Below are positions 1-63,220 of a stretch of DNA of 64,000 bases, in pieces. This stretch comes from Psammoneis japonica (taxonomy: Eukaryota): NCBI GenBank assembly GCA_008632985.1, contig QPGO01000048.1:434001-498000 (forward strand), written 5' to 3'. The notes beneath the pieces were generated by a model. The model made no database searches. It was not told the origin of the DNA and saw only the letters and a program-made list of their open reading frames with translations. The position numbers were made by a program, and so were the translations under genes. Positions within the stretch are counted from its first letter, which is position 1; each line of letters opens with the position of its first letter.

Positions 1-653
1 GTTCTTGGTCAATGTTTTGGTCTTCGCAGCAGTGACGCTCCTCTGTTGGTGCAACGTCACCTTTGGAACCTACAATCGAGGTCCGGACAAAGGGTTTCAG
101 CACACCCAGGTCAAACCAGACGACAACAAGATGCACAAGGTGACTGTGAAAGCGCTTTCTGTTGCCAAGGCACTGCTCAAAGGTGTCAAAGTTTGCGAGA
201 TGCCTGGCAACCCCTTGTGTCCCTTGAAACTGTTCAGAAAGTGTTGGGGATGGTGCCGCCCAGACCAAAAATGTTTCCTGCACCACTGCGCAAGAACAGG
301 TGCAATGACTTGCCACACCAAGTGGCAGAGAAGAAACAAATGGGGAAAACTGCGGTTGGCAATCAAATGAAATGTGCAGCCGAGCTTTGTGGGCTTGAAA
401 ATTGGGAAATGGTGACAAATCATTCAAGCTGAGTGCTCTTGATTGCAGCTTTGGTCTCTGTGAATCTCCACCCAAGAGAGATCGCCAACCGTGTCAGGCA
501 CAAGTCTGCGGAAAGCCAGAATGTCTGCATGCACGAGCATGAGAAGGTTGAGCCATGTGCAGGACGCGATTCGTCCAGCGTCCGTCGCAGCTGCCTCTGC
601 GGTTCAAGAAGTTGATGCTGCAATTCAAGGAGTTGATGCTGTGACAGTGACCT

Positions 654-1253
654 TTGCTGAGGGAGATTCCAGTGGTTCGTCTGCTCCTTCTGAAACAGAG
701 CTGGCGAGTTTGTGCTCTCAGTTTGTGCTCTCGGTGTGATGCCTTGTCGGCTGACAAAAACAATCTTGAGTCCACTGTTCAGGAGCTCAAAGCCACTGTT
801 GGCAATCTTGAGTCCGCCAATGCCATGTTGGTGTCAGAAAAAGACCACTTGGAAAGTGAAAAAGCTGTGCTCCAGGATGGTCTTCAGACAGCCAAACAGA
901 AAATCGAGAAAATGCCTGCAGCTTCCGACTTTGGTTCAATGGATTTTGGTTCAATGGCGGATCATGTTGCTCGTCGTGACAACGCGCTTGAGTTGATGGA
1001 CACCAAGCATTGTGAAGCAAAGAAAGAGAAAATGCAGGTGCTCAACCAGAGCACACAACTCGAGTTGCAGCTTGGAACAATTCAAAGCCATGAGGATGAG
1101 ATCAACTGCCTCAAGGATTCTCTGGCACAGGCAGGTGCCTTGAATCAAAACCTGACCAACAACTTCAGTCAATCTCAGATGCGTGCAGCACAGCTTTCGG
1201 GACGGGTTCATGATTTGCAGGAGCGGAGGAACCGAGTGTGCACAATCATGTAG
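654..1253 (+). pseudogene. Degenerate coiled-coil ORF remnant of unknown origin
   Basis: Heptad-like text (LSADKNNLESTVQELKATVGNLESANAMLVSEKDHLESEK) inside the hypermutated domain; no Tyr; no recognisable domain. Confidence 0.4.
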
Positions 1254-1989
1254 AGTGACTTTCTTTTAGACCAAATGGGGCAGTCTGTTGCAATCACAGT
1301 GAGCCAGCATTGCCAGACTCAATGCACTGCACTCAACACACTGTGCACTTGGCACGATCCTCCAAAAAGTGAGCTGCAGCACATCACTGCGCTCGCACCA
1401 GCCTCATCCAGAACAACCTCATGCACATGTTTGAATGCTCTCGCGTCATGCTTGTTCTGCACAAATTAAAAAGTTTCAATGTTGTCATTCGTTTCGTGAC
1501 ATCATCAGCCGTCATGGTGTGTGTGACACCATCATCTGTCTCGACCAATCAGCGTTCATGGAATCACATGATGATCCCGGCAAAGAACGTCTCAACCAAT
1601 CAACATTCAGGGAATCCAATCCCAGCATCGGAAATCACAGCCGGCGGCTGCACATGATTCTATGACAATTCTGCACTGAGACCCGGTGCGGGTCAGATTC
1701 CAGAAATCTGGAAAATGCCACCTCCGAGCGTCGACCCGGTGTGATTCCGTGGTTTTTTCGGCACAAAGCTCGGCGAAGTCATGCAAACACAGGGATCACA
1801 ACCCACGAATGTGACCGCGCTGCGGAACAAAGAACAGACACTGTCCAATGCAGCACCACCACCTGCCGCACAAAGTCAGGGCACCGCAGGGCGTGGCAAA
1901 CAACACGCAACAACAATGCATGCCGACAACAAAACAACCATCAGCACCACGTTCAAACAGTTGCTTCTTTAGAGACTCTTTACAGAGCT

Positions 1990-4772
1990 GTTGCCAAAAC
2001 AGTCGAGAGCCGTGTGTGTCAACAATTCCATCAGCGACGTGAGCGCATCAACAACTTCCACCAGACAGCTGGGACAAGCTGAAAGCACAGCAAGTGCAGA
2101 CAGATGCGCGTTGCGGTTGCACCAAATTTACAGAGTGTGGAAAGGAAAATTGCCGTTCGAGCAAATGCAGCTAATTGAAATTGAGGAAGACCACCTCGAG
2201 TTTGAAATGCTGTCTTGTGCAAAGTGGTGCTCTTCTGCTCCAATGCCAAAGAATTTTGATGATGACTTGCAACCAACACGCCACAATCAAGATGGGCCTG
2301 CAAAGCTGTTGGTGGCAACCACTCTTTCAAAATGCACCGGAAAGGTCCTGACATTGATCAGAAGACCCAACATTGATTGGAAGACAATGGCCCGACCACC
2401 CTGACTTTGCCAAGTTAAAGGAAAATGAACATCCAAGTTGGTGGACACGGATGAAAAGCCAATTTGAGAGAGAAATTGAGGCACATCACCTGCGACTCGG
2501 CAGTGAGTGTGCTTTTGGTGAATCGACAACGCATTCACTGCATTCAGACAATCAATGCGTTGGCTGTGACGGGGAGATTGCTTTGCCCATCAATGACTTT
2601 ATTTCCATCATTGACCTTCAAACTGTTCTCAAGAAGCTCTTTGAGGATGCAACTCTTGACTGTGGCAATGGAGGCAAGCTGCAACAATGCGCATGGCTTG
2701 CGATTTGTTTCAATGCCGTTGGTCGGGGAGGAGAAATGAAGTTTGTAGACATGGCTGAATGGGTGTGTCATCCAAGGTTTGAAGCCACTGACGTTGGATG
2801 GACTGAGCTCAAAATGAAGGAAAAGCATTCCATGCCAATGGCTCTGGACAAGAGCCGCTGTCTCCAAGATTTCTGCCATGCTGTGGGTTTGTTTTGGTCC
2901 GTTGAGAATGGATTGTTTTGAGTGGGGGAGGACCAGCTTGCAATTCAATCATTCCTCTTTCCAGATCTTCACAGCATCAATGACAATGGGGTGTCGAAGA
3001 AGGTCACCAGTGTCATTCGAGACAATTTGCCGCAGGGCTGCCCGAAAGACATCAAAGATTCATTTTTGACTAAATCAATGCAGAAAGGGAGCATGACGGA
3101 GCTCACGACTCACAAGGCAATGGACGCGTTGGACATTTGCGGTCACTCTGGTCATTCCACTGGCACCAACTTGGACACGTGCACAGACAAAACATTCATT
3201 GTACGAGGGCTTTGTGGAGCAAAGGCCTTGGCATGCTTTCGTGACATTGACGCAGATGCAAGAGTGCCAAGGCTTGAACACTTGGGAGCTCACACGGCTG
3301 CCGCCATTGACGCACTGATGCAGTCTCTCTTTGTTGTGTCTGTCCCGTCTTTCAAGTCTGGCAGATCGCTGCATGTTGTGCTGCGAACTTGCATGGCTTC
3401 CTTGATCATGCACCACACTGCGGTGTCAACCGAATGTTCTCCTGCGAATGCTGTTGCAACAGAACTTCGTATTGTGGCACGAGAAGCAGCTGTTTCTGAT
3501 TCTCGTCATCCAGGTTTGGCTCCCGAATGCATTCTGGACAAGTGGTTGGAAATTGTCATGAACGACTTTCAAGATCACAATCCTGAGATGGCGGAAGCTC
3601 AGCCGGACATGGTGTCCATGGCTGCTGCGATTAACCAACAATTGAGTGTCTTGAATCAAATGCATGCTGAGATGAAGGAGATGCGCAAAGAACAGGAGAG
3701 AGCCAACCTGCATGAATCGGCACAGCTGGAGTGCATTTCTGCACTCGAGAATGAAAACAAAGCCTTTCGACTTGATCTTTTGAGAGCAAATGAGAAGCTG
3801 GCGATCATCAGGACGCCAGAGAGCGCATCAACTGGTGCATCAATGAGCCGAACCAGTGTGTCATTGAGCCGCCCACGACAAGCAATTGGCGCTGATGAAT
3901 GCAACGAAGGCAACAAGAACCCACGCACTGCATTGTGCGCATCTCCCGGGCAAGCGGCAGCTTCGACAATGGAGACCAATGCTGCTGCTGATGCGTCATC
4001 TCAATTGAATGCAGCAACAACAACGGCACCAACTGAGGCAGCTGCTCAATCAACTGAGCAAGCGACTGCCGCTGTGACAGCTCACTCTGATCTGTTGACT
4101 GTGGCTTGTTGACTTCTTGTTCCATCAAGGCCATTGGTGCATGGCGCACAAGCAAAAGCAAGCTCAAGCAAGACAATGGGCAGAGGCATCACTGTCTCAT
4201 TGTTGCTGCAGGATCTACATCGACTCAGACGTTTGAAGAAGAAAAAATGGAAAGATTTGGAAGTTCCAAAGAAATGCACTGAAGCGCAGTGCACAAGGCA
4301 CATGGTCGAGTTGTGCCAGTGCGTGGTGTCCGATGCCGAGAAAGAGGTTCTCAAAGGCAGCAACAGTCTTTTGGACGAGGAGTTCCTCCAGCTTTTAAAT
4401 GACATTGAGGTGCGAGCTCTTGACAAAATGTGGGAATTGGAAGGAAAGGATCCTCATGTTGAACAACAGCTTCAAAAGCACTTGAATCCAAGCCAACAAG
4501 TCAAGGCAACCTGCATTGGATGGGGCAAGTGTGTGAAGATGCACAAAAAAATCTTCAGAAGCATGCAAAATCATCAAAAAACTTCAACAACGAAAAGCTT
4601 CGTCCGCTTCCTGAAGAATCGCCGCCTGGAACTCCCAAAGACAATCGATCGATTGCAAGTGCGTTTCGCACTGCTTCAGTGGCGATGGCTTCCGCACCTG
4701 CTCCCAATGACACAGCTGGTGAGTCACAGTTTCTTGACACCAGGAATTGGTGCTGCACCAGCAGTGACATAA
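1990..4772 (+). mobile_element. Degenerate Crypton-like tyrosine-recombinase transposon ORF
   Basis: YR-like motifs in order: FNAVGRGGE (catalytic R), TELK, TKSMQKGSMTEL (HSxRKG-like), GHSGH...NLDTC (expected ..DTY; TGC at 3180-3182). In-frame TGA at 2919-2921 separates ORFs 2373-2921 and 2922-4112. No RT nearby, so Crypton-like rather than DIRS. Confidence 0.65.
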
Positions 4773-5165
4773 AATGGGCAAGTGGCTTCGTGTCGCACAG
4801 CACGGCGCTCTTGCGCCAACTTTCAGAGCAAATTTGAGCTTGCTGTCATGCCGCCAATGTTTCACCTGTGCAAGCATTCTGATGACACGTGTTTGCTCGT
4901 GAGACACTGCATTTCCAGAGAGCAATGCACCAGAGTGAACATGAACTGGGAACACAGGTTCATGTCACGCCGCGCCTTTGCGCCGGTTGCAACTTCCTTT
5001 GGAAGATGTTGCACCCTCTTGCCACCAGATTCTTCTGTTGTCTCAACAAAAAACACATCTGCAACCTCTCCCTTTTCTTCAATTGCCATGCTGAAATGCT
5101 GGAATCCTGGTGCATGAAAGCTGCTGGTTGTTGCCAACACATTCGCGGCACCGCTGGTGTTGTCA

Positions 5166-5965
5166 TGGAGCTGCAATTTGGCTGCAAATTGGAGCTTGCT
5201 GTCAAACCACAAATGTCACCCACACAAACATTCTGATGACATGCGTGCACTCGTGAGACATTGCATTTCCAGGAAGTGATGCACCAGTGGACAGAAAATG
5301 GGAATGCAGCTTCATGTCGTGCCGCACCCACACGCCATTTGCAGAGCTGCAACTTGGCTGCAAATTGGAGCTTGCTTTCAAACCACAAACATCACTCATG
5401 CAAACATTCTGACAACATGCGTGCACTTGTGAGATGTTGCATTTCCAGGAAGTGATGCACCAGTGGACAGAAAATGGGAGTGCAGCTTCATGTCGTGCTG
5501 CACCTGCGCGCCATTTACAGAACTGCAACTTGGCTGCAAATTGGAGCTTGCCATCAAACCACAAATGTCACCTGTGCAAACATTCTGATGACACACATGC
5601 ACTTGTGAGACATTGTGTTTCCGGGAAGTGATGCACCAGTGGACAGAAAATGGGAGTGCAGCTTCACATCGTGCCGCACCTGCATGCCATTTACAGAGCT
5701 GCAACTTGGCTGCAAATTGGAGCTTGCTGTCAAACCACAAATGTCACCCACACAAACATTCTGGTGACATGCATGCACTCGCAAGACATTTTATTTCCAG
5801 GAAGTGATGCACTGGTGAACAAAAAATGAGAAAGCAGCTTCATGTCGCACCGGCGGCGCACTGTTGGCTCACTTTTCAGAGCAACATTTTTGCTGCAAAT
5901 TGAAGCTTGCTGTCACAACACAAACATCACCTGCACAAGCATTCTGATGACACATGCATGCTCAG
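5166..5965. repeat. 176-bp tandem repeat, about 4.5 copies, plus a diverged copy at about 4820-4990
   Basis: Anchor gctgcaaatt at 5181, 5357, 5533, 5709 (spacing 176) and 5892 (spacing 183). Confidence 0.95.
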
Positions 5966-6689
5966 AAGACATTGCATGACCAGAAAATGATGAACACGAC
6001 ATGGGAAAGCAGCATCACATCGCATCGCTCTCTTGCACCATCGTCGCATCTCTTTGTGCAGTGCACAGTGAGCACCGCAGAGTGTCGCTCAACTCTCAAC
6101 AAGGTTCTTTGACACCGATGTTGGGCTTTTGTGCTGCAGCGCGCTTTCGCAGTCGGCCGGTCGCCGGACGGCCCATTTGCATTGTCGCGGTTGCCACGCT
6201 TTGCGCTGTTGCTGCGCTTTGCACGTTTTTTTTCCGTGGCCCTGTCACGAATTTGCGGCTTTGTGGTTCTTGACCTGGTGCTGGATCGTGCTTTCCGAGT
6301 CGTGATTCCTGCCTGCCGGCGTTGAGCACACTGAGATTCCTGCACAGGATGTGCACAACGGAAACATTTTCACGCACACTTCTACAGGATTGCCGCACTT
6401 CGAAGTGCAAACCAAATGACTGACCAAGACTGCATGGATTCCGAAATTATGGAGCTCGCAGCTCTTCGGTGGCAGTTTTTTTTGTTTTGTGCAGGCCACC
6501 GTGAAGCCTGCAGAGGAATTGGCAGCAATTTTGGAAGTGCCAAGTTCCAACGAATGCTCTGCATGCAAACTCATGGGATTAATTCTACAAAGGTTCACAA
6601 AAATGACAGTGATTGAGAAATTTAGCAATGGTCACAACACAAACAAAATCTCAGAGAATCCATGTTTTTCGATCACAACTGTCATTTGC

Positions 6690-6975
6690 GGCACGATGTG
6701 TTTGTTGTTCACCAAGCCGGGGTGCAGCAACACCCAAGGATGGCTTGCCCTTCCTCTGGCTCTAATTGCTTTCTCTTGTTTGGTGTTCCACAGCATGTTT
6801 TGCTTGCGTGAAGTGTTGTCTCTCTTTTCAACTCGTCGTCTCGCACGATGTGTTGTTGTTTGCCAAGCCGGAATGCCGCAATCGCCAAAGGATGACTCGC
6901 CCTTCCTCTGGATTGAGACCTTGCATTTGTTTGGTGTTCCACAACATGTTTTGTTTGCACGAAGTGTTGTCTCTA
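6690..6975. repeat. Tandem duplication, about 151-bp unit, 2 copies
   Basis: gcacgatgtg..ccaagccgg at about 6691 and 6843; ttggtgttccaca..gaagtgttgtctct at about 6780 and 6931. Confidence 0.8.
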
Positions 6976-7634
6976 GGCGGCGCAGGTGTTGCCAGTTAAG
7001 TCCGGAGGTCGGGGCAAATCGAATGCGTGTCTCCAGCCTTGAGTCCATGTCACTCTTGTGTCTTTGAGCGCAGGAAGTTGCCTGTTTGCTTGACCCGTCA
7101 GGTCATGGCTGTTGAAACAGACAGCAGCGTTCGTCTGCGAAGCAGCAAAAGCTCGCCGAGCAGATCATGCCGTTGACGGAACACAGGTTTGGGGTTCTGT
7201 TGCATCAGTGACATGATGCGGCAAGTCTTCACTCGCAGGGAGTGTTGATTTAGAACGCGGTCGACTCGCAAGTTCTCTTGTTGTCTCCGCAGTGCGCCCC
7301 CTCTTTTTTCTTTTTTTGGGATGGTTTTCCACCCCAAAAACAGGAAAAAGCTTGAGCTCCATCTTCTGATGGTGCTCTTGAGGCAATGTTGTCCTGCGCG
7401 ACTGATTTCTGTCAACTTTTGATGTTGGCATGTTTCAAATGTTTGAAACACGCTTTGAAGCTGTTCCAACAGATGTGGAAAGCCTAAAAGTGCAAGACAG
7501 CAATCTACATTTGCGTGTGAGGCATTCCGCACGTGCATCAATGGACTGCAATGACGGTCGTAGCACCTGCATGCTTTGATGCTGTTGTTTCTGTTTGTGT
7601 GCCACACCGCTCTCTTTCTTTCAGATGCCGTCTC

Positions 7635-7955
7635 TTCACTGTCTGTCATTCCCTTGGGTCCACACTGGGCCATTCATTGCCGCATGCCCCAAGGCTTGTC
7701 GTTGACACCTGTCATGTGGTGGAATTCTGCCGCTGATCGCTTGCATGTCACAAATGGATTCATTGCACCCCAACCTGCAACGACACAACACACCTTCACT
7801 GTCCGTCATTCCCTTGGGTCCACGCTCGGCCATTCGTTGCCGCATGCCCCAAGGCTTGTCATCGACACCTGTCATGTGGTGGACATTCTGCCGCTGATCG
7901 CTTGCATGTCACACGTGGATTCATCGCACCCCAACCTGCAATGATGCAATGTACA
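7635..7955. repeat. Tandem duplication, about 160-bp unit, 2 copies
   Basis: gtc(t/c)gtcattcccttgggtccac...ccccaacctgcaa starts at 7641 and at 7801. Confidence 0.92.
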
Positions 7956-8079
7956 ATGCACATGCCCAAAGGTGCTTTGAGGTGCTGACTGTTCAATGGA
8001 TTAACCCAAGAGGCCATGGGATCAGGTTGTCACATGCCTGGAACTGAGCAGAGGGCTGCTCTTCCACCCTTTTCCCATC

Positions 8080-9150
8080 CTTGCAATGAGCGTTTGCATC
8101 ATTGCCAGTTGGATGGATTACAATCGTGTTGTCAAAGTCTGCCTTGGTCGCTCCCATCTTGACAGCTGCTGCAACACCTTCCATTGCTTCCATGTGCTGC
8201 TGAATCTGTTGCCAAATGAACCCCAACCACCTTGTCAGTCGCTGTCCAAAAGATGTTTTTGACATGGTGCACGTTTCTGACTCTGTGCACAGGAGTTCAG
8301 AGTGCATCATTGGTCGAAATTTGGTCTTGCAGACTGTTGTGTCTTTGAATTTCTCTGCCGCGTCCTCTTCTGCACCTGACAGTTGCAAATTTGGGATTCG
8401 TCAACACGGCAGATGCAACAACAAGTCGGTGTTGACCTCCGAAAAGTGCATCGGCAAGTCGGTGACCCTCCATCGATGCGACAGGCACAAGAGCAATGCG
8501 GCCCATTGCATCACCAACGGTTTGGACACCACTGACATTTGTTTTGAGTTTTCACAGACAGCAACAAAGCTGCCCTTTGTTTCGACTCCGGATGACATGA
8601 GTGCCGTTCAGCGGGATTCCTGTTGGATTGCAGATCAACATTGGTGTTCGTCTGCATCATTTCATCTCGCAGCAGCTCTCGCATGTGCTGATCTAAACCT
8701 CACAAGAACAAGTCTCCACGACACATGAGGGTCACGTCAGCGCCAATTGAGGCCGTTCATCATCTGTGCCAACTCAAGAGCCCACAGTGACGATTGGCTC
8801 TGGCTGTTCCTTTGGGTGAGACATTTCATTGGAAGAAACAGCGTGTTGGACACTGGGAATGTTGGGCTTGTTGGACCAGCCTCCGACCGCGATGACAACA
8901 TTCTTTGCTTTTGAAGTCTGCGACACTATCCGACCACAGTCAGTCAACACATCAACGACTGCATTGTCGGCCCGTTCAAAATGCCAAAGCCTTCGACAGC
9001 TTCAACGCCGGCGTTCTTTAGGACAGCTTGCAAGGGATGAGATCTCACATGTTGTGCTGATGTGTTCAACCAAGTGGAATCACCATCTCTTGCATGTCCC
9101 GCGAGTGCCATTGCGTGGATGCATTTTCTGGACAAACAGCAGAAAAAGTC
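8080..9150 (-). pseudogene. GSR: Glutathione reductase pseudogene (frameshifted, internally deleted, hypermutated)
   Basis: Ordered motifs across frames: VLKNAGVEAVEGFG; AKNVVIAVGGWSNKPNIP..SSNE; LELAQMMNGL..ADVTL; GRIALVPVASMEGHRLADALFGG; TTVCKTKFRPM; AVKMGATKADFDNTIVIHPT. Confidence 0.88.
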
Positions 9151-10159
9151 AGAGCATCCAACGAAATCACGATGAAATGACCACTCCTCGTCTTTGCTCT
9201 CCCTCCTCAACATTGCTGCTGCTGACATCTTCACAACATCCTTTTTGCCCACACAACTGTCAGGCCGTGACGTCACAACTGCTTTCAAAGCCGAGGTCGA
9301 CACAGCTTTCAGGTGCGCCCAAAGGCGAGAAGCACTTGGCTGCGAACTGCAGCAACATTCCATTTGCAGAAAACAACACTTTCGAATGCAGCGATTCGGG
9401 TGCAACTGAGGACTGCAGGAGGGCATCCTTGGAATGTGATGGCAGCAGAGCTTTTACCCCACACTGTCACGACCATTTCTGTCGTGGCTGGCACACTCTT
9501 TCTCCTTCCTCCTGATGCTGATTTTGCAGGTGTTTTCACCCCGTCACCCCTTCGTCATGACCACTGCATGTTGCTCGTCATCTTTGCATGATGATTTCTT
9601 CGAACAAGACGTTTGCTGTGTGCACAAACAGCCAAATGCACTCTTCCAAACAAAACCCAGTGGGTGACAAACCAAAAGAGCGTCATGGTGCATGCATCCA
9701 TTGGCGCGGCGGCTCATTCATTCGCTGTCTGCCCGTTGTCATGTGCAAAATTTCAAAATCGTGTGGACCTGCACATCACCTGTGCTGTGGTTTCTCCCTC
9801 CACTGCTGCGACTGATTCCAGATTCCAAATCTCCAAATTGGCCATGGCATTGGGCTCTGAAGTGGTTGAAGCAGTGAAGCACCACATGATCTCAAAGGCC
9901 GGTGCAGCGGCGGCACGAGCGCTCTCCAATGCTGCAGCATGAGAGCAGCTGCCTGCTGTTTGCCGCACTGCTTGTCCTTTGCATGCTTTTGCGGAAAGTG
10001 TGGTTGCGCTTGTTTCTCATTTGTTGTCTCAAACGACCAGGCGTTAGATCACATGATGCCAAAGATGCACATCTCCCATCATCAAACATCAATGAACACT
10101 TGACTCTCTGCTTGCACGTCAACCGGTGCACTGCTGGCACGGGCTTTTCTGTGCAACAA

Positions 10160-10500
10160 CCTCCTCTGGTCACAGTTGATTCCAGCACAACACTGCTGGC
10201 CAGAAGGACAGTCAATGTGTCCGTCGTGTTGCAAACGGCACCACAGCTGGTTTCCGCATCCTGCCAGTTCACTCCACACCTTGCAACAGGTGTGGGAGGA
10301 GGTCCACTTGATGAGGAGCACTCTTCAGAACCACAAGTCACCAAATGGGCATGGTTGCAGCACTGATTTGTCTCATCAAACAAGAGACCATCAGAGCAAG
10401 AAATGGGTGATCTGACAACCAAACCGTTCTTGCAGTGATGAAACTTGGTGCAGGCATCAATCAACTTGAGTCTGGTTTCTCCACTTTCACAACACATGGT
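10160..10500 (-). pseudogene. Chitin-binding (CBM14/peritrophin-A-like) domain relic plus Cys-rich module
   Basis: C..DACTKFHHCKNG..ISCSDGLLFDETNQCCNHAHLVTC matches CBM14 spacing (expected KFY.C, CNY), followed by RCGVNWQDAETSCGAVC and, after a frameshift, DCPSGQQCCAGINC. Confidence 0.75.
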
Positions 10501-10864
10501 GCCTGGGGAAGCAGCGGCTGCTGGGGGTGGAGAAGGGATCGCGCCAAACGCGCAGACACTTTCCAGGTCCAGGTGGGACCTCGCACTGCTGAACTGTGAC
10601 ATCGACAGTTTTTTGAATTGCATTGCATGTCGCGCACGCAGAATTCTGCATGATTTTGTTGACATTTTGTGTCATTTTGTGGCACACTCATTGAGCGATC
10701 CATCCAACAACTTTTGACATTTTTTGTTGCAGCGCGATTCTACAATGCTGAAAATCATCCGTTGTGTTGCGAATCTTTTGGCGTGATGAAAAACACAGAT
10801 GGCACAACAACAATGACATTGCAGCACTCACACAAGTCTTGCAAGTGTTGCAAAACATTTGTGA

Positions 10865-13800
10865 TTGCACAAATCTGTGCTTTTGGTGGTGAAAGTTCGA
10901 TCGCAAGTTGGGGACCGCGCAAAAATCGTGCAAATGTTGTTTTTGTGCACGATTTGGTTCACGTGCAGCTGGAACACGTCCATTGCAAAGCCTGGTGGAA
11001 AGCGACCAACATTTGACAGGAGCACACCGACGAAGAATGAAGAAGCGCTGCATGTTGTCATTGAAAGTGGTCAAGCCCATGTGGTGAAGATCGCAGCAGA
11101 ACGTCTGTGGAGAGTCGGTGCAAAGAAAAAGATCCCAGGACTTAATCTTCAATTCATTCCCTGTTGCTCCAACTCTGCCATCAAGTGCGCTCTGGACAGC
11201 GTCAAGAAAAATGTCGACAAACTCAAAAAAAGACAACACTTCTTTTGCACGTCTGTCATGGGACAAATTGACAACACCTTCATCGACAATCCGGGTTGCC
11301 GCGTTGACACTCCAGGAGGCAGTGTGACTCTGCGACAACACCCAATGCAGAAAAGAATCCCTGACCCAACCAATCCTGGCAAATTGATCTCGCTCGTGCA
11401 TCACATCAATGTCAAATGGAACAGGAAGTCGGACCATGTCATTGCCTTTCCAAGGAAATCAGTTGACCTTGTGACACAGATTCTGAACAACATGATTCCA
11501 GAATGTCTGCACGTGTGCGGTCCAGCAGCGGAAGCATGGTTCCAAGCGCCAGGCATCACAGTGTACAAGAATGCAGTCTGTGACCCCCGGAAACTGGACT
11601 GATGACCACTGCGGAGAACGGCGCACTTTCAGGCATTGTCAACGAAGATGCCTGGGGCATCGAAGGTCTGTGGGAAGCGGAGCAAGTGGATGAAGCCTCC
11701 ACGGAGCTCAGAGACTCCTCTGAGAATCAGACATCGGACCTGCCGGAAAACAGTCAACAGGATCAGGCCCCGCCGACGGCAGCCAAACAGGCAGCAGCTA
11801 AACTTGCACAGGCTGATGACGTGTCTTCAGTGGGACATCTTTGGAACAAGGACAATGACACACAATGTGCCAAGGCTCAACTTTCCACAACCTTCAACAA
11901 AGACAATCTTGAAGAATTCAAAGAATGTGTGCCAGACGATGACTTGATCAAAGCTGCCTCTTCAACATGGGCAAAACTCGTGCAACTCCAACAAGAAAAC
12001 AAAGCACTTGTTGAAGAAATGCAATGACTTTGAGCAAATCAGGCTCAAGCACCCGGTCCGGCCCCGGCGGAGAGTGCAGCAGACTCTTCCGTGGATGACC
12101 TTCCCAGCTCCCAGGCCGAGGGAGTGGGACAGAACACCTGGGCCACACCGTCCTCAGCAGAACAGTTGACGCCCGCAAGAGGAGGACATTAATTTGGAAA
12201 GCACAAGTCGACAAGCCGATGGGGCATGGGGTGACTCGGCCACCATTGAGAGTCTCAGTGTCACACGTTTTGCATTTCACAATGTCAGCGGTCTTCCCGT
12301 TACGATCTCTGCTGCAGACAAACACAAAGGAACAATTGACTGGATCAAGGATGACAATGTGGATGCAATGGGGATTTCCGAAGTCAATCTAAACTTTTCA
12401 AGAGCAGCGAAACATGAACAATGGAAAGACAGGTGGTGCAATCTTTGGGGGAACAGCTCCACAGTTGCGACAAACAAACACTGCTCTGCGGAAACGAAGT
12501 GCATGTGTGGCGGCGCAGGTCAGGTTCTGACAAGATCAGCAAATCATCGTCTGGTGGACAAGGGTGTGGACCCGACCGGCCTTGGAAGATGGACCTGGGC
12601 TGGAACAAGAGGGAAGTCAGGAATGCATGCAAGAATCATCAATGTCTGCAGACCGGTCAAGGACCATCAAGCCCATCCGGGCAGGGCATGCTCACAACAA
12701 GAAACCTGCTTGCTGCAAAATGATGATGTCAGATGCCCGAGGCAAGCAATGCTTGACAATCTTGGAGGACAAATTAGAGCCTGGCAGGAAAAAGGAGATC
12801 TCATCATTGTGGGAGGAGACTTCAATGAAAATGTGAGAGGCCTGCGATTTGTCAGCTGGTGCAGGAACCTCCATCTGGTGGACGCCATGCAAGAAGCACA
12901 TCCTGACACTGCACCGGTGGCTGCGTGTGACAAGAGTCAATCCAACATTCCCATTGACGCCACTCTGATCTCTCCGGCGCTTGAAGTGACCAAAGCAGGC
13001 ATGACAGGGTTCGGAGAAACGGACTGTCTGTCAGATCATAGAGTGTTGTGGTGGATCGACATTAACAAGCAAAGCACTCTTGGTTGCATGCCACCAAAAC
13101 TGGCGGACACGAAACCTGGTGCACTGGCCAGAAAGCTGCAAGATCCCAAGGTTGTCAGACGCTGTGTCAAACCAGTGGTGAAAGAGATCCAACGGCTGGG
13201 ACTGCTGCGACGAGCAATTAAACTGGAAAATGCTGCATCCTTTGGACTTGAAGAGCAGAGAAGAATGCAAAGAGATGTTTGCCCTCAACCATCAAATTTG
13301 TCTGGATGCCAAAGAAAAATGCAGGAAAATGCACATGAATGAAGTGGAGTCATCCAACACGATTGACAAGGCGAGAAAAGAGACACATCTGTGGTGTTTG
13401 GCATTTGAGCTTCACCACAATCAAAGAGTTGGCGTTGAGACGATCTGCCAACAGATGAAATGCACCTTGATGCACTGACCTTCCGGCCTCACCAAATGCA
13501 GGAACAACACAAGTTGGCCATGAAGCGCTGCCACAAACTCAAATGACAGGCTTCAAAATTACGACAAGATGAGCTCAAGAAGCGTTGTGCTAAGAGGGCA
13601 GAGGAGAATGGAACAACTCAAGTGCAAGAAGAGAAAATGACACAACATGGCTGCCGACAAAAAAGGATGTTTCGACGGATTGAGAGCATCACTGGCAGAC
13701 CAAAAGCAGCCCTGCAGGCCGTCGTTGCCAAAGGAAAGAATGGGAGAGATAGAGAACACCACACAAAATCAGGGATGGAAAGCGTCTGCAATGAAGAAGG

Positions 13801-16800
13801 GCAAGGCAGACACAGCCAAACATCTGCAGGCCCACACGCTGTCCCCTTCATGATGGAGCCATCAGTCAGTGACTTTGGACATGATGCAAACACGTCAAAG
13901 GCAAATCAAGTGCTCAGTGGCACCTGCAATGTCCCTCCTGATGTTGAGGAACATGCTGCAAAGTTTGTCAAACAGCTGAAGAAACCTGAACCTCCGCTTC
14001 CGGACCTGAAGCTAGAATGCATGACAGAGGAACACATCTCCGGTTGGAAGAAGATGAAACCACACACAACTGGCAGCCTGTTTGGTCCGTCTTTTGCTGA
14101 CTGCAAGGCCGGCAGCACTCATCCAGCAACAGCAGAATTCGACGCATGCATGTCAGCCATCCCGATGAAACAAGGACATGCACCAAAGTGCTGGACCAAG
14201 GTGATTGACGTGATGACACCAAAAAAGACGGCGTCGTCCCACGTCAAGAAACTTCGAACAATTGTCCTCTTCGATGCTGTGCGCAACAAGATGAACAAGT
14301 GCTGCGCCCGTGCCCTCGTGAGTCAAGCGGAGACATGCAAACAAATCCCATGGGAGGCATGCGGCAGCAGGAAACGACACTGAGCAATTCTCTGCACCCT
14401 TGACAAGGTCTTGACAGGAGACATGTTCCGGCAAAGCCACAAACCAGGGGCTGTCAATGGCACAGATGCGAAATCATGCTGCAACCGGATGCTTCACTCT
14501 GTTGCTGCACTGTGCATGCAAAGATTTGGCACTGGGGAAGATGAGGTGTTCATGATGACAGGAACATCAACTCAGATGCAACACTGCATCCGGACAGCAT
14601 GTGGGGACTCTGAAGAACCACATGGAGCATTGGAGATTCCACTTCAAGGCATCTTCCAAGGGCACGGCACGGCTCCTGCTGTCTGGCTGGTTGTGAGCAT
14701 TCCTGTCATCAACATGTTGAAGGAAGAAGGATTCGGCATTGAGGCAATGACACCAATTTCCAAACAAGCACGTCATTGCGTGTGCTGCACCCATGTGGAT
14801 GACACTGACCCACCATGCTGTCCCGCAAGTGAAGACGCCACTTGTGAGGATGTGATCTCAAGCATGCAGAAGATGTCAGACTGTTGGGAAGGTGGAGTCA
14901 GGGCAACGGGAGGCGCTCTTGTTCCTGAGAAGAGTCGCTGGTCCCTGGCTTCATTCAAGTGGATCAATGACACATGGAAGCACCAATCCATTGCCAAAAC
15001 TCCTGGCGAAATCACACTTGTGGATCACGAGGGAAAGCACACAACTGTGGACCATCTGGAAGCATCTGAGGCTGGAGAAAGCCTGGGCCTGTGGATTGCC
15101 CTTGATGGCAACTCCAATGCTCAAATGGAAGCTGTGAAAACCAAGGCAGTGAAATGGGCCGACCAAGTTAGATCAGGACATGTCAACAGGATGGAGGCCT
15201 GGTTTTCTCTTGCAGGAGGGATCATGATGAGTCTGGAACACCCACTGGTGGCAATGTCTTCATCAAAAAAAGAGTGTGTTGAAAGTGAGAAGCCACTGCA
15301 TGAGATTGCTTGTGCGCCCCGACACGATGCAATGGACTGGGACTCTCTGAGCTCTTTGTCAGGCAGGGCATCGCTGGAGTGGCAGTCTTCTTGCAACAGA
15401 TTGATTCACTTTCTGTGACAGGGCGGGAAACAAAGCATGTTTGCGAAACAATGGCACTGGAGCTTGGCCACGGGAGCAAGATGTTCTCCTTGGACTGCAA
15501 CACTCTGGCAACCACAACGACGAAAACATGGACCAAGTCTCTGTGGCAGTTTGTTGCTGTTGCCAAATTGATTTGCACTCACCCAAACCTGCAATCAATC
15601 TCACGCGGGAACAGGACACCTTCTTGATGGAGATGTTTGCGGCGTCAGGCCACAAAGGAGCGCATCTTCGGAAAACAAATCTCTGCAGAATGTGGCTGCA
15701 GGCAATCCGCATTTCTGACATTGCTTCTGGAGACGGCTCTAGAATTCTTCCCAAACATTGGCACGGAACCGAAAGATGCAACACAGAATTCCACTGGCCA
15801 AAGGCGGGAGTGCCTTCTCGACCATGCTGGCGACTTTGGCAGGAAGCTTTGACGACATGCTGTCTGGCACCTGGACGCAATGACAAACTTCGACTGTGGC
15901 GGGCACTTGGCAAATGGACCGAAACTCCCAGTGCCAAATGGCGATGCTCGCAACGGGAGGACAGGGTTTTCCACAAGACAGAGGACCAGATTGAACTGTT
16001 CATCAAACTGCTGAACAAATGAAGCAGCCGCAGGAATTGCTTTGTGTTGAATGGACATGTCAAAGATGAGCCAGACGATGCACTGCCAACTGGAGTTCAG
16101 AGAACATTGACGAAGATGATTCCCACAGGAGCTGAACCTGTCTTGCTGCAGGAGCCGGAGAGCTCCATCAACACAGTTGAGTGGCCATGCACTCCACACG
16201 GCTTCCAACCACCGGTTGAGCCATTGCTGCAAGGAATTAAAGATGGCACAGCCATCTGTGTGACTGACGGGTCCTGCAAGGAAGGCCTGGCAATGGCTGG
16301 CATGATTCTGCCACCTCGGCAGGGGCACACACACAGATGCAGGGGTGCAAACCAAACACCAGGAGAAATGCAGGATCTCACTCCATGTGGAGGAGAACTT
16401 GGAGGCACATTCAGTCTGGTGGCACACATTAGAAAGCTCTGCAAACAGCACAACATCACACAAGGAAAGGTGGTGCTCGGCTGCGACTGCGATGTTGGAC
16501 TTCGTGCATGTTTTTACAATGAATGTGACAATCCCACTCTAACCATCTGTGACCTCATTCACCCCATTCAGTCAATGGTTCAAGAACTGCCGACAGTTGT
16601 GGAAGCAGTGGAGGTCGACGGACACAAAGACAAACTCAAGCCTCTTCATGAGTTGTCCTGTGTGGAACAGCTGAGTGTGGAAATGGACTTGCTCGCGAAG
16701 GCCCATTGGGAGGCACTTTGTTCGCATCCTGGTGCTGAGCCACATCAAGCAGCCCAACCTGTCTGGTCGGTTTGACTTTGGGGCAGGACATTGACCTCAT

Positions 16801-17860
16801 GGAGGAAAAATGACGTGCCAGAACATGTGTGTGGCCCGCCAGCAGCAAGTTGTTGGAACAAGAAATTGTCCCTGGAACCAATGAGAGCAAATGTTGATTG
16901 GGATGCAATGGAGCGAGCTGTGAACAGATGCCCTGTGTTTCGAAAACTGTGGCAGCCTTGGTGGAACACTGGCTTTGTTCCAACGAACAACAACCTCTTT
17001 CGGTGGAAGAAACTCGAAAGTCCGGCATGCCCCAGATGTGGTGAGAATGAAGATGGCATTGATCATGTTCTATGATGCAGGGCATGCATGGCTCAAGAGC
17101 TGTGGACAAAGAAGATGTTGAACCTGGACAAGTGGCTTGAGGACCAGCTGACCCACCCCGATCTACGGAGCAGCATTCTTCATTTGCTTCAGGCGTGGCA
17201 TGAAGGACAGCCCTCCCCTGCAATTTCTTCAGAATGCCCTCACACACAGGAGGCTTTTGATGCACAAGAAGAACTGGGAGGTGGCACCCCAGTGCAAGGT
17301 TTTGTAGCAGAAGAATGGGTGGCTGCACAGCAAGCTTGCCGCGCATTTCTTGAACGACGCTGCACAGGCAAACGCTGGGTTTCGGGTCTGATGCAACAAC
17401 TCTGGAACACGGCATGGGACACATGGCACCATAGGATGCAAGCAGCCGAGACAACAACCTCTGAATCAAAACTCACTGTCAACAGCATTCTGGATGACCG
17501 CATCAAAGAACAACGCGGCAGGTTCTTCAGCGAACCTTCCGCAACTTCCCACTGTGCCCGGTGGTTTGCTGGGACAATGGAAGAGGTCCAGGCAGAGGAT
17601 GCAGACTTCAAACAACACTGGCTGGCTGCTGTGGAGGTGGCCATGAAAGCCACGGGGCACATGCCCCACTGTGAATCTCATGAAGAAGATGAACAGCAAC
17701 CAGCGCCCACAACTGAAAGCGCACATTGTGTGTGTTTTGTGAATGACGTTCTGACCCGCCCCACTCCATGGTTGTGGATTGAAAGGGAATGTCAGGCGTG
17801 ACTAAGCCTTAGGCGGTGTAAATTTTACTGTGAGATTGAATTGAAGTGAAGTGAATGAAG
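10865..17860 (+). mobile_element. Near full-length degenerate non-LTR retrotransposon (LINE): ORF1 plus APE-RT-RNaseH-Zn knuckle ORF2
   Basis: APE: FHNVSG, GISEVN, GGDFNE, PIDATLIS, SDHR (about 12270-13045). RT: KLRTIVL, DAKSCCNRM, QGIFQGHG, HVDDTD (14792-14809). RNase H: VTDGSCK, GELGG, GCDC, VDGHKD, EMDLLAK (about 16250-16700). CPRCGENEDGIDHVL*C at about 17030-17080. Many stops and frameshifts. Short (T/G)TGAA-type repeats at 17835-17862 may be the 3' tail. Confidence 0.93.
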
Positions 17861-18310
17861 TGCGGTAATTAGCAGCAAACCAACAACAAATCCAAAATGC
17901 TGGATGGATGCATAGATGCTGTAGATTCGATTACCGTATGTCGCATGTCTGTCTGCCGTCCATCCTGGGCCCAACCCCAGCCAAGGATTTGACCCCAGCA
18001 GACCCCAGCCCATCCCGCCCGCATCCGCACTCCGCACATTTTTTAACTCCAATCGCTCTTCTCAACTCTGGACGGTAGTCTAGCTACCGTAGTACCGTAG
18101 AGAGGAACCTATTGTATGGATATATCTCTTCATCTCATTCATCGGCGTCATCATCATTCATCGCTTCGCCATCATCAAATCCATACCTTCCCGTTCACAT
18201 TTCAAGTAAAGCCAGCAAAGAGGCCAAGTGGCCCGCGAGGCGAGAGAAACGCGCTCAATAATACCCACACGCTCCTACATCCGCGCCATTTGCTTTCTTG
18301 GTGCAGAGAA

Positions 18311-19259
18311 ATGAGAAAATTCCCTGAGAACTGGGCTTGTCTCGCAATGTGGGTTCTGTTTTATTGCCCCAAGAACGCTTCTTCATCTCGATGGACCTCG
18401 TTTGTACCTCTTATGAAACATATGGGAATTTCTTCAAAGAGACTACGCGGCTCAGAACGTCGCACGATTGGGCGCGTCTTTTCCTCAAGTACTCCTCTCT
18501 GCGATACAACTGATTCAGATGAGAGCACCTGGACCAATCATCCAGACCGCCGAGAAGAGAACGAAAAGGCGGAACAACCAAAATCGATTTCGTCAGCATG
18601 TCAACCCACTTTCGCGAAAGTTTCAGCAGCCTACTGTACTTACGTCGGATTGGCCCAACGATGTGTTTGACGACGTTTCTCTTCCACTTCACCTTGACAT
18701 TGGTTGCGGCAAGGGAGGTTTCTTGCTTGACATGGCAACGGCTTCGAGCGACAAAAATTACTTAGGATTGGAGATCCGACCATCTGTTGCCCAACTGGCA
18801 CAGGAACGCGTTACCAAGAGAAAGCAATTGACGGGGCGCTTGTGTTTTGTTGGTTGCAATGCTAATGTTGACCTCGAGAGACTCTTGTCACTCCACAAGG
18901 CAGCGTCAGAAAATGCTGGGCCATTGGATATGGTCTCTATTCAGTTTCCTGACCCACACTTCAAGAGCAGCCACGCAAAGCGTAGGGTGGTCACGCCAGA
19001 ACTTGTCACCTCGTTGGCAACGTTTATGCCCGAGGGCGCCCAAGTATTTCTTCAGAGCGACATCAAGTCGGTTCTAGACGAAATGCGACTACAATTTAGA
19101 ACCAAAGGCGGATACTTCCAAGATGAAATAGTCAATGTGGATGATTACATGGAATCAAACCCGTTGGGCGTCGAAACTGAACGTGAACGAAGCGTCATTG
19201 CAAAGGAGCTCCCAGTGTATCGAACCATGCTACAAAGAACAACCATTCCAGTGGAATGA
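18311..19259 (+). CDS. trmB: tRNA (guanine-N7)-methyltransferase, TrmB type, probably organelle-targeted; apparent 1-nt frameshift near 18530
   Basis: RFRQHVNPL, LDIGCGKGGFL, YLGLEIR, IQFPDPHFK..H.KRRVV, QSD, TERE motifs. The start is inferred from the upstream frame. Confidence 0.88.
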
Positions 19260-19323
19260 GACAATTGACAATTCTAAACTCTTCTAGCATTCGTTGCTCA
19301 AAAATCAACATTCAAATCTCCAT

Positions 19324-20529
19324 CTACAACAATACTTTTGACAGGCCCAAAGCGTGTCCAACCAAAATCGCCTGAGGGACTCTTTTGTGTTTGTTACATG
19401 AGCTTAATAAACAAATACCATGAATCGTGGGCTCGCCATCCAGTTGGACTTGAGAAACTGGATAGAGATCAACAGTTTCGGTCGATCTTCTCACGGCCGA
19501 CACGCGTCGAAGGGACCCGTCCGACGTTCCGAGGATCACTTCTGCAGAGACACCAAGATCGCTAACGCAAGCCAAAGCTGTGACTCGCAAAGGTTCTCCA
19601 GACACACCATCAATAACCAATGTTGCCGCAGGTGCCAAGGAGAATGGGTTGCCTTCTTTACTTAAGGCTCTGCATTGAAGTGTCCCGTCAACTCCAACCG
19701 AGAACAAGAATCCACCTTTGAATCCCACAACTAATCCAGTTACCCTTCCGTTGTGCGCCGCGATAGTCTGTTGTGGATTTTCAACCGTCACATCTCCAGA
19801 CCAGCAGTGAATGCGTCCGTCCACTCCACCTGCGTACGTACAGTCTGATTCTTCGTTTCTACAGAGGCACGACAAGTCACTCGACAAAGTCGAGCCCAGT
19901 TCAGGGCATGAGCTAATGGATCTCTTGGTTGCATGTCTCCACTTAGGAATTTTGTCATCATCGTGAAACCGCTCCCAGGTTTCGACGCAGTTGCAACCAA
20001 TACTGTGAACCAGATTGCGAGTCCTGTCGTAAGTAACGTCTTTTACCCAACCCGTGTGCGGTCCAAGATTCTGAGAGAATTGAGTTCCTTCGTCCGAAAG
20101 ATCCCATACAGAAACGAAACGATTGCCTCCTCCGCACATGAGTTGCGCTGTATCGAACCTATCATCACTCTGGAAGGTCGTCATGGAATAAACGGGCAAT
20201 GAAGTTGCTGAAGGATCGCGTAGTTCTCTGACAAGTTCAAACGATTCTTCGTTGTTATCGGATTTGACATACTCTTGGACGCTTCCTCGTTTTGTTCCAA
20301 CATAGAAAAAGTGGAGATGTCGTCCCTTGGGAGAGAATCGATGCAACGAAGTCACTCCCTCCCGATGGACATGGCATATGCTACCGGCGGTTGAGATGGT
20401 AAGGGCGACCACAGCATCGTGCCCAACTAAAAAAGCTGCGGATGCGACGAGACACTGAAGGCGCCACCTAGATGTTTTCAAATAATGATTGCGTCGAGAT
20501 GAGCAACACGGTGCAGATTCTCCGATCAT
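19324..20529 (-). CDS. WD40-repeat protein with N-terminal signal-like segment
   Basis: About 400-aa ORF with GGGNRFVSVWD, GPHTGWVKDV, GGVDGRIHCW, AAHNGRVTGL..FSVGVDGTL. Confidence 0.8.
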   Translation of the reverse strand: MIGESAPCCSSRRNHYLKTSRWRLQCLVASAAFLVGHDAVVALTISTAGSICHVHREGVTSLHRFSPKGRHLHFFYVGTKRGSVQEYVKSDNNEESFELVRELRDPSATSLPVYSMTTFQSDDRFDTAQLMCGGGNRFVSVWDLSDEGTQFSQNLGPHTGWVKDVTYDRTRNLVHSIGCNCVETWERFHDDDKIPKWRHATKRSISSCPELGSTLSSDLSCLCRNEESDCTYAGGVDGRIHCWSGDVTVENPQQTIAAHNGRVTGLVVGFKGGFLFSVGVDGTLQCRALSKEGNPFSLAPAATLVIDGVSGEPLRVTALACVSDLGVSAEVILGTSDGSLRRVSAVRRSTETVDLYPVSQVQLDGEPTIHGICLLSSCNKHKRVPQAILVGHALGLSKVLL

Positions 20530-28759: not shown

Positions 28760-29587
28760 ATGAATTGCCTTATCTTTTATCTATCCATCGTTGGAATTTC
28801 TCTGTCTGTGCTCAGCGTAGCTAACGTGGAAGCATTCTCCCCGCACTTGCCTCCGCATGCGCAGCAAGTTGCATCCAAGCACGTGTGGGGTGTTTCCGAA
28901 CCCCATTTTAACACTTGGAGGCTGTTTGGTTCTAAGACAGATAGCGGCAGTGATGATGGTCTAAAGATAATTATTGCGGGAGCTCCAGCAAGTGGGAAGG
29001 GAACTCAGTGCGAAATAATCAAGGAAAAGTTCGGTGTTGTGCATCTCAGTACTGGTGACATGCTGCGGGCGGCGGTGGCGGCTGGGACAGAGGTTGGCAA
29101 GCAGGCAAAAGACTTTATGGATAGTGGAAAACTAGTGCCGGACGATGTTATTATTGGAGTTGTTAAGGACCGTTTGGATGAGGAGGATTGTAAGACGAAC
29201 GGTTGGCTCCTCGATGGCTTCCCTCGTACGCCAGCTCAAGCCCAGGCTCTAGAGGAGGCAGGAGTATCAGCTGACTGCTTTTTGTTTCTCAACGTGCCAG
29301 ATGATATTTTAGTCGAGCGTGTTGTGGGTCGCAGGACTGACCCAGAGACAGGCAAAATCTACCACATGAAATTTTCCCCGCCCGATGACGAGGAAGTGTT
29401 GGCACGCCTTGAACAAAGAAGTGACGACACGGAAGAGAAGGTGATGGTCCGTCTAGAACAGTTTCACGCAAACGTTGACGCTGTAAAAGGAAGCTACACT
29501 GACATTTCGGTTGATATCGATGGATCAAAGACGCCCGAAGAAGTTTCTAAGGCCATCAGTGAGGCAATAGCTAAGTTCGCCTCGTAG
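28760..29587 (+). CDS. adk: Adenylate kinase, probably plastid-targeted
   Basis: GAPASGKGTQ P-loop, HLSTGDMLR, GWLLDGFPRT, RSDD. Signal peptide followed by EAFSP. Confidence 0.96.
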   Translation: MNCLIFYLSIVGISLSVLSVANVEAFSPHLPPHAQQVASKHVWGVSEPHFNTWRLFGSKTDSGSDDGLKIIIAGAPASGKGTQCEIIKEKFGVVHLSTGDMLRAAVAAGTEVGKQAKDFMDSGKLVPDDVIIGVVKDRLDEEDCKTNGWLLDGFPRTPAQAQALEEAGVSADCFLFLNVPDDILVERVVGRRTDPETGKIYHMKFSPPDDEEVLARLEQRSDDTEEKVMVRLEQFHANVDAVKGSYTDISVDIDGSKTPEEVSKAISEAIAKFAS

Positions 29588-29837
29588 TTTGCTAGAGTCA
29601 AAATGTTGCTTCGTCCGCGTTCGCAGCCATACCGGTACCAGAAAGTCCCGCTACCACCTCAACCAAGTAGTCTAATCGAAATCAAAGAGAAGATTACCTA
29701 CATGTCGTTCTACTTTATCAATGAAAATTTGTACGTGTAAGGTAAAGAAAAGTCCATGCGAAAGTCAGCATGAAGATTGTGAAGGGGCACACTCAGCACA
29801 ACCACTTTCCTAATAGTTGAAACGTAAATGAATATTC

Positions 29838-30466: not shown

Positions 30467-30859
30467 GGCCGTGAGATGAATAGAGAATAGATAAACTCGC
30501 TCAAGGTGATAGCTACCTGAAAGCTTTCGTAACTTACCCTGCACTCAAACAAAAATTCAAAATTAGTTCTACTTTCTCCAAAATAGCCAAATTGGAAAGC
30601 CTATGAGACAGGTCGAGTGAAGGCGGAGCACAAGCGTCAAGCCCAGCAACAGTGTGTCGAGCTTCGAAACAAGTGGTGTCGACAAGTGTCAGCCACGTCA
30701 CACACCGGCGCGGCAATACCCCTGATCAGCGATTGAACGAGAAAGATGTCGAGTTGTGTGCTTCCCTTCTACGCTATGTACTTCATCGTACTCTAGTTAG
30801 AGCTACTAGCTAGAGGGCGACCAAATTCTATACATGCTGTACCTGCTTGATGCTTTATT

Positions 30860-63187: not shown

Positions 63188-63220
<33 letters not shown>

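Follow-up and report, generated by a model that had tools for sequence, protein, structure and literature searches.

How does a retrotransposon come to encode a reverse transcriptase almost devoid of tyrosine? The question is raised by a degenerate long interspersed nuclear element (LINE), a retrotransposon without long terminal repeats (non-LTR), in a 64,000-bp stretch of Psammoneis japonica DNA (contig QPGO01000048.1) that we call the window. We found that the missing Tyr residues are not a property of the LINE's second open reading frame (ORF2): they reflect a regional effect that covers 24 kb and includes non-LINE sequence. In sharply bounded blocks of the window, which also show decay of CpG, TpA steps (TA) have been converted to TpG or CpA (TG, CA) in a manner that is polarised, symmetric between the strands and close to saturation. 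Three coding relics that are unrelated and lie on both strands bear this signature, as does a tandem array, and sequencing reads support it.

12197-17801, + strand: ORF2 of a degenerate LINE (a non-LTR retrotransposon), comprising an endonuclease, a reverse transcriptase region and a zinc-binding tail.

The LINE is spread over seven stop-to-stop frames of 390, 278, 344, 205, 250, 99 and 241 amino acids (12170-17801, + strand), all terminating in TGA. Residues 38-290 of the first frame match Pfam Exo_endo_phos (E = 4.3e-6, 27.1 bits against a cut-off of 24.5), which predicts an N-terminal apurinic-type endonuclease domain, and the sixth frame carries a reverse-transcriptase zinc-binding motif below the Pfam cut-off. 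The window's own reverse transcriptase is too degraded to give a Pfam RT match. Its middle 623 amino acids are nevertheless matched, over 77-98% of the query, by 34 intact proteins (1,092-1,989 amino acids, 31-43% identity), 21 of which are annotated with PF00078. The V-D-D of an xVDD box lies at 14795-14803; V and the first D occur in all 34 relatives and the second D in 33, and the region is assigned on these matches as a reverse transcriptase domain with an xVDD box. In tblastn the relatives traverse frames 2, 1 and 3 between 12197 and about 17640, so that the LINE has two frameshifts, near 15310-15370 and 15555-15590. Their alignment crosses nine in-frame stops, every one a TGA, which face Arg three times (in at least 50% of relatives), Trp once, Lys once and mixed residues at the rest. 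An alternative genetic code with TGA as a sense codon was considered and rejected, since TGA aligns with Arg, Trp, Lys and other residues, the outcome that CGA or TGG decay would give. With nine in-frame TGA, two frameshifts and all 23 of its strongly conserved Tyr lost, the LINE is a dead copy that lacks the intact frame of an active one.

The seven frames hold one Tyr (TAC at 16515, in FYNE) in 1,814 codons, while Cys amounts to 4.63% and His to 4.19%. The 34 intact relatives contain 2.0-3.6% Tyr and 1.0-2.4% Cys; were Tyr to make up 2%, the chance of meeting one or none would be 6.5e-15 (Poisson). A position was counted as conserved if 20 or more relatives covered it and 60% or more of these agreed. 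By this rule none of 23 conserved Tyr was kept (11 had become Cys and 5 His), against 436 of 600 other residues (73%; Fisher p = 3.5e-13), such as Trp (38/42), Gly (58/67) and Cys (11/12). Ile was the next worst large class, with 20 of 42 kept; its replacements included ATG four times and ACA three times, as expected from an ATA origin. A looser rule, under which 15 or more relatives had to align and half or more of them to have Tyr, gave 33 codons. Here the LINE has Cys at 14 (TGC 11, TGT 3), His at 9 (CAT 5, CAC 4) and Tyr at none, the other ten being Met (2), Arg encoded by CGC (2), Phe (3), Asp, Ser and Pro. Six positions illustrate the pattern.

14480, TGC: Tyr in 32 of 34 relatives.
14600, TGT: Tyr in 22 of 34 relatives.
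14360, TGC: Tyr in 29 of 34 relatives.
12647, TGC: Tyr in 28 of 28 relatives.
15239, CAC: Tyr in 32 of 33 relatives.
14792, CAT (HVDD): Phe in 31 of 34 relatives, Tyr in 3 of 34.

An earlier note on this DNA had described an ORF2 nearly free of Tyr, had named six sites where Cys or His replaced it, and had read the change as TA to TG or CA. The near-absence of Tyr stands, on frames slightly longer than those it counted, and five of its six sites have Tyr in 22-32 of 28-34 relatives. The sixth, the catalytic box, does read HVDD, but the derivation from YxDD that it assumed is only partly right: Phe in 31 of 34 relatives makes the family motif FVDD rather than YVDD, and the residue was probably Phe in most of the LINE family. 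The polarity is borne out by the retention of 0 of 23 conserved Tyr against 436 of 600 other residues and by five sites, described below, at which other repeat copies retain TA. Both outcomes do occur in one element: the count against relatives that the note had proposed comes to 14 Tyr-to-Cys and 9 Tyr-to-His, with ATG (4) and ACA (3) among the Ile-to-Met and Ile-to-Thr codons.

For a nucleotide baseline we used 80 related LINE loci, obtained by a pattern search of metagenome contigs with patterns that favour intact copies. All 80 had a TA observed/expected ratio of 0.56-0.86, and the lowest value in any 1-kb window was 0.31. Per 1000 dinucleotides, the mean over 39 full-length related LINEs is 42.1 TA with an sd of 5.8, none falls below 31.0, and the window LINE has 3.6; the corresponding values are 59.8 and 30.5 for CG, 56.7 and 101.4 for TG, and 84.9 and 105.7 for CA. 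Relative to its family, the LINE has thus lost 38.5 TA and 29.3 CG and gained 44.7 TG and 20.7 CA, and the joint loss (67.8) equals the joint gain (65.4). Apportioning this gain between TA and CpG sources by base composition failed, the family baseline not being the true ancestor. Of its 1,864 codons 8 still carry TA, where the rates of the relatives imply about 138, and T|A junctions between codons number 12 instead of about 95; similar losses within codons and at junctions mean that the loss of TA was not codon-driven. Relative to the family level, TAT and TAC are down to about 2-4%, TAA and TAG to 14-27%. Selection against TA, for instance as an escape from RNA cleavage or from transposases that target TA or TTAA, was rejected because the affected sequences are pseudogenes, because codons and junctions lost TA equally, and because TTAA is the best-surviving context.

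The depletion extends well beyond the LINE. Three TA-poor blocks were delimited in the window.

1-17802, no strand: block A, TA-poor, 67 TA in 17,800 bp; extends past the window's left end.
54598-59710 (left border at about 54600), no strand: block B, TA-poor, 17 TA and 25 CG in 4,981 bp (54620-59600).
62769-64000, no strand: block C, TA-poor, 5 TA and 8 CG in 1,201 bp; extends past the right end.

TA observed/expected ratios inside and outside the blocks were as follows.

LINE, 12170-17801: 0.06.
1-11000: 0.06.
Each kilobase of 55001-59000: 0.00-0.09.
63001-64000: 0.08.
Each kilobase of 18001-54000, outside the blocks: 0.33-0.96.

Together the three blocks span 23,982 bp and hold 89 TA steps; the remaining 40,018 bp hold 1,609. 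Runs free of TA reach 1,716 bp in the blocks (1,180 bp in block A), compared with a maximum of 230 bp and a mean of 25 bp outside. The stretches poor in TA have an excess of TG and CA (observed/expected 1.4-2.3) and no depletion of AA, CA or GA. The right border of block A falls between 17432 and 17803, the limits of its last TA-free run, and ten TA occur within the 200 bases just 3' of that run. Within block A, single kilobases up to 17000 have TA ratios of 0.02-0.13 and CpG ratios of 0.37-0.86. CpG is far scarcer in the other two blocks (0.05-0.10 at 55001-59000 and 0.10 at 63001-64000). TA and CpG drop jointly at both borders of block B, and at the borders of blocks B and C the two shifts coincide within one 200-bp bin. 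Relics on the + and - strands, a tandem array and high-copy segments make up the mosaic of block A, all equally poor in TA; no normal DNA is left between the elements, and the longest TA-free runs, like the 67 residual TA, are scattered throughout its 17.8 kb.

Because TAA and TAG are gone, long open frames occur in all six frames of the blocks. The 18.5 kb scanned across the three blocks (block A only to 12200) contain 130 open frames of at least 75 amino acids, the longest having 396.

The shared borders invite the question whether CpG decay and TA loss are the same phenomenon. Methyl-CpG decay yields the same products, TG and CA, in the same blocks and with borders within 200 bp; CpG loss with a gain of TpG and CpA is present here and explains part of the TG and CA gain. 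It does not explain the loss of TA, as deamination of cytosine cannot remove TpA and the TA loss in block A exceeds the CpG loss. A broader passive bias could be invoked, whereby old, silent, methylated DNA slowly loses TA through context-dependent replication or repair error without any dedicated system. In its favour, all three blocks are short of CpG, stops and frameshifts show the relics to be old, and transitions (290) far outnumber transversions (53) among the differences from other genomic copies. Among spontaneous context-dependent changes, however, none is known to be faster than methyl-CpG decay, and we know of no spontaneous lesion with TA specificity. Yet the TA loss in block A (observed/expected 0.06) is far ahead of the CpG loss (0.47), the same two values being found in the LINE itself. 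Such a slow process also sits badly with the 73% of non-Tyr conserved residues still in place (436 of 600) and with intergenic DNA outside the blocks, which keeps TA at 0.33-0.96 in each kilobase. We therefore consider a passive bias unlikely.

Other sequences in block A bear the same mark. Four more features were recognised there.

8056-9093, - strand: frameshifted pseudogene fragment resembling the C-terminal two thirds of glutathione reductase.
2069-4568, + strand: relic of a repeated ORF family, class not assigned, with a frameshift near 2362-2376 and one TGA.
9895-10671, - strand: open frame matching a chitin-binding peritrophin-A domain (Pfam CBM_14, E = 1.2e-6, 29 bits against 22.1).
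5168-5961, no strand: tandem array of 176-bp units (TRF period 176, 4.5 copies).

The reductase relic resembles pyridine-nucleotide disulphide oxidoreductases, their dimerisation and FAD/NAD domains being matched at 7996-8400 and 8777-9001 on the - strand (Pfam Pyr_redox_dim, 29.3 bits against a cut-off of 25.3; Pyr_redox_2, E = 4.9e-5). Of its 93 homologues several bear the name glutathione reductase, and diatoms are the source of the named eukaryotic ones. None of its 12 conserved Tyr is kept, five having become Cys and one His; at the seven Tyr positions with at least 40 aligned homologues, five are Cys or His. The repeated ORF relic has four homologues, the best 51% identical over 96% and belonging to a cluster of 54 members. 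Aligned to it, the 15 Tyr of the longest homologue (P0130) are met by Cys five times, His four times, Tyr once and other residues five times. The open frame with the CBM_14 match contains no Tyr and 24 Cys.

In the tandem array, four ungapped units (5168-5871) vary at 54 of 176 columns, 29 of which lie within TA, TG, CA or CG steps. Ten dinucleotide positions alternate between TG and CA only, one shows TG, CA and TA, and six involve CG. A swap between TG and CA takes two adjacent transitions unless both states come from TA (or CG). Array positions without any CG unit are mostly TA-derived, since about half of the CpG but only a few per cent of the TA survive in block A.

Some observations on these features stand apart from the question of TA. 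In the repeated ORF relic, the spacing of Arg, His and Tyr (Cys in the window, LDTC) at 2358-3400 on the + strand recalls tyrosine recombinases, but that identity found no support in the searches that followed. The relic gave no Pfam match even at E = 10 and, as a single sequence, no match in the Protein Data Bank (PDB); a profile search of the PDB returned only coiled-coil chance matches (best E = 0.19), and an AlphaFold model was unusable (mean pLDDT 33.6). Block A also contains short tandem duplications at 6691-6974 and 7634-7944, with periods of about 151 and 160 bp and identities of 82% and 93%, and the bin 6671-7337, which overlaps the first, is high-copy in reads.

Both products of TA conversion are present at near parity in each block, with 1,813 TG and 1,896 CA in block A, 628 and 539 in block B, and 127 and 144 in block C. 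The double product CG is rare at the LINE Tyr sites (2 of 33), which fits a rule whereby a site is no longer a target once it has changed on either strand. The residual TA are enriched in TTAA: 42 of 178 lie in this context within the blocks, compared with 140 of 3,202 outside, and none lies in ATAT, compared with 274 outside (counts symmetrised between the strands, which overstates significance). TGC and its mirror GCA are the most over-represented products in all three blocks. At Tyr sites a purine precedes 7 of 10 His and a pyrimidine 12 of 18 Cys (one-sided p = 0.07). Taken together, these biases suggest, from few sites and with residual TA that may be new mutations, that the preferred target is the adenine in 5'-TAY-3' or, equivalently, the thymine in 5'-RTA-3'.

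From the coexistence of Cys and His, the earlier note had argued against editing at the RNA level. The argument holds for editing confined to sense RNA, as by an ADAR-type enzyme, which would act on one strand: the LINE has 14 Cys and 9 His, and block A its 1,813 TG and 1,896 CA. Adenosine-to-inosine (A-to-I) hyperediting of retroelement RNA is known to be fixed by retrotransposition, for example in mammalian retrotransposons. It resembles the present case in clustering A-to-G changes in retroelement copies, but it affects one strand only, stays far from saturation and has no 5' U restriction, unlike the window, where TG and CA occur in one element, about 90-97% of TA is gone, the 5' T is strict and non-LINE sequence is hit.

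The argument does not reach a UA/TA-specific adenosine deaminase that would edit retroelement RNA (giving TG) and then first-strand cDNA (giving CA), with which both outcomes are compatible. Block A would then be an accumulation of insertions that had reached the genome already free of TA. It is true that the best-characterised element is a LINE and that the TA-poor state gives way at about 17802, a few bases from the LINE's last codon; elsewhere, however, the TA borders match those of CpG decay, a feature of chromosomal domains, and the 17.8 kb of block A are of mixed orientation without a surviving normal stretch between elements. The reductase fragment looks like a retro-copy in lacking its 5' third and any visible intron, but no trace of poly(A) lies beside it. 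Likewise, the Tyr outcomes lean towards sense-strand A-to-G (Cys 19 versus His 10 in the LINE and the reductase relic together), yet not significantly (p = 0.14), and the overall products in block A are near parity. Editing before insertion thus appears improbable to us.

We aligned read-built contigs from one sample, whose library type is not on record, to positions 1-20000. A 5,927-bp contig (10951-16877) is identical to the window at a word depth of 37. Diverged copies of other parts differ from the window by 290 transitions (A>G 74, G>A 74, C>T 66, T>C 76) and 53 transversions. Forty of the 355 positions that differ between the window and other copies were listed and classified, as follows.

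Window TG, other copy CG: 12.
Window CA, other copy CG: 4.
Adjacent TG/CA swaps: 4 swaps (8 positions).
Window CA or TG, other copy TA: 5.
Window TA, other copy TG: 1.

The five sites with TA in the other copy indicate that some copies of high-copy families keep TA where the window copy has lost it. Judged by the reads, block A includes both high-copy parts and parts that are single-copy at 85% likeness. At 10006-11339 the summed word depth reaches about 29,000-36,000, against about 35-56 in neighbouring DNA, with loose ends at 10561, 10691, 10747 and 10980, and a few hundred bases of this segment belong to a very high-copy repeat, its kind not assigned. Word depth is about 34-45 in single-copy block A (2503-17342) and 56 in the gene region at 17959-20000, a difference that could reflect allelic difference, hemizygosity or sequence bias.

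These reads also bear on an artefact, either a modified base at TpA misread in repeats or foreign or chimeric DNA in the assembly. The sequence is present in one sample only, of unrecorded library type and perhaps the assembly's own data, and an N sits within a G run near the left border of block B. But misreading of both modified T would give CA on one strand and TG on the other at every site, whereas each site has a single fixed state and contigs match the window over 5,927 bp at a word depth of 37. The blocks contain pseudogenes with diatom-like relatives, and four borders within one 64-kb window make chimerism unlikely. An artefact of either kind seems very remote.

We favour, as the probable though far from certain explanation, a process at the DNA level that is aimed at repeats or silent chromatin and converts TpA to TpG or CpA, following the same logic as repeat-induced point mutation (RIP) in fungi with the opposite chemistry. 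Three lines of evidence carry this preference: the whole 17.8-kb mosaic is uniformly hit, with no normal DNA between elements; the borders of TA loss double as borders of CpG decay; and the TA loss has outrun the CpG loss while most other conserved residues survive. The process would be enzymatic and would act on chromosomal DNA after insertion, with RIP-like targeting of blocks that are rich in repeats and presumably methylated or silenced. A transition from A:T to G:C on either strand of the palindromic TA step would give TG or CA, products that would no longer be targets, so that conversion could run near to completion within the blocks. Whatever the strand, TAY codons would turn into TGY (Cys) or CAY (His), and ATA, TTA, CTA and GTA codons and the stops TAA and TAG would likewise disappear; the LINE's loss of Tyr would be a by-product. 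Candidate chemistries are deamination of the adenine in 5'-TA-3', or oxidation of its thymine to a product later read as C, two routes that leave the same sequence, as TA is its own reverse complement.

More tentatively, and at slightly less than even confidence, we propose that this DNA-level process may be a previously undescribed genome-defence hypermutation, in which an enzyme recruited to repeats or silent chromatin rewrites TpA and so quickly erases Tyr codons together with TAA and TAG. The predicted enzyme would be either a DNA adenine deaminase that prefers a 5' T or a thymine oxidase yielding a base that is copied as C. We class the finding with repeat-directed hypermutation; the chemistry behind it has a substantial chance of being new.

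Several points weigh against a DNA-level process. TA loss beyond the LINE affects a gene fragment, a tandem array and DNA of no assigned kind, none of which provably never went through RNA, and all the identified relics (the LINE, the possibly retro-copied gene fragment and the unclassified repeat) could have done so. Within the window, no DNA transposon or truly unique DNA could be shown to be affected, nor any young copy to be partly converted, and no candidate for an enzyme that converts TA lies there. Among the 80 metagenome loci there was no second TA-free case, a weak objection given that the search patterns favour intact copies. Finally, the sample reads are probably those behind the window's assembly, and their support is hence non-independent.

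The closest known likeness is with RIP of ascomycete fungi, which also makes saturating, dinucleotide-specific transitions on both strands of repeated or silent DNA, with sharp borders, and destroys coding capacity, duplicated cellular genes included. RIP changes C:G to T:A, mainly at CpA, and so creates TpA (PMC2621366). Diatom DNMT4 enzymes are described as related to RID and of unknown function, and the available part of that source reports no loss of TA (PMC9998398). Unlike in RIP, TpA is destroyed and G:C gained in the window, whose host is photosynthetic and diatom-like; the LINE has 3.6 TA per 1000 dinucleotides against the family mean of 42.1, and TG and CA have increased.

Drives from T towards C and marks on thymine each have a precedent. 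The depletion of CTAG in E. coli has been ascribed to very-short-patch repair, a T-to-C drive that likewise acts at a TA-containing word and arises as a by-product of the handling of methyl-cytosine damage; it is, however, bacterial, genome-wide, mild and limited to one tetranucleotide. Older biochemical work pointed to a preference of 5-hydroxymethyluracil for TpA. In dinoflagellates, a lineage of the same supergroup, repeats and transposable elements carry 5-hydroxymethyluracil made by a TET/JBP enzyme, a thymine modification enriched on transposable elements (PMC11572971). It is presented there as an epigenetic mark, and the accessible portion of the paper mentions neither TA loss nor T-to-C mutation (PMC11572971). 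Full-text searches, with subscription journals outside their coverage, found no report of TpA-to-TpG/CpA hypermutation of repeats.

The rest of the window adds the following. Outside the blocks lie ordinary genes, among them a tRNA methyltransferase-like gene, adenylate kinase, the ferredoxin-thioredoxin reductase catalytic chain, cyclin, Utp14 and riboflavin kinase; twelve Pfam-matching ORFs there contain 1.85% Tyr (84 of 4,548 residues). One ORF outside the blocks (31152-32309, - strand) weakly resembles the HhH-GPD base-excision repair superfamily, its 25.4 bits falling short of the cut-off at 26.2. Block B gave no Pfam match at E <= 0.01, and a 442-amino-acid read-through from it had one marginal match (E = 8.8e-4) among 1.84 billion proteins. 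About 200 bases inside its left border, at 54806-54835, a run of some 30 G holds the window's sole N (54819) and may be an assembly join. No repeats common to different blocks were found at E = 1e-10, and Rfam and tRNA scans of the window gave no RNA genes. The sequencing runs listed as containing the sequence include none from RNA.

The signature, a TA observed/expected ratio below 0.15 over a kilobase, can be screened for in any genome. In TA-free blocks, gene finders would call false genes, homology searches would miss transposons, and codon and amino-acid statistics would mislead. A natural DNA adenine deaminase or mutagenic thymine oxidase would be of interest to research on genome defence and on base editing alike. 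If enzyme-driven, the process would be the first natural system to hypermutate chromosomal A:T to G:C at a defined dinucleotide. If the proposal is true, it would be the A:T-to-G:C counterpart of fungal RIP, a second and chemically opposite solution to the problem that RIP solves.

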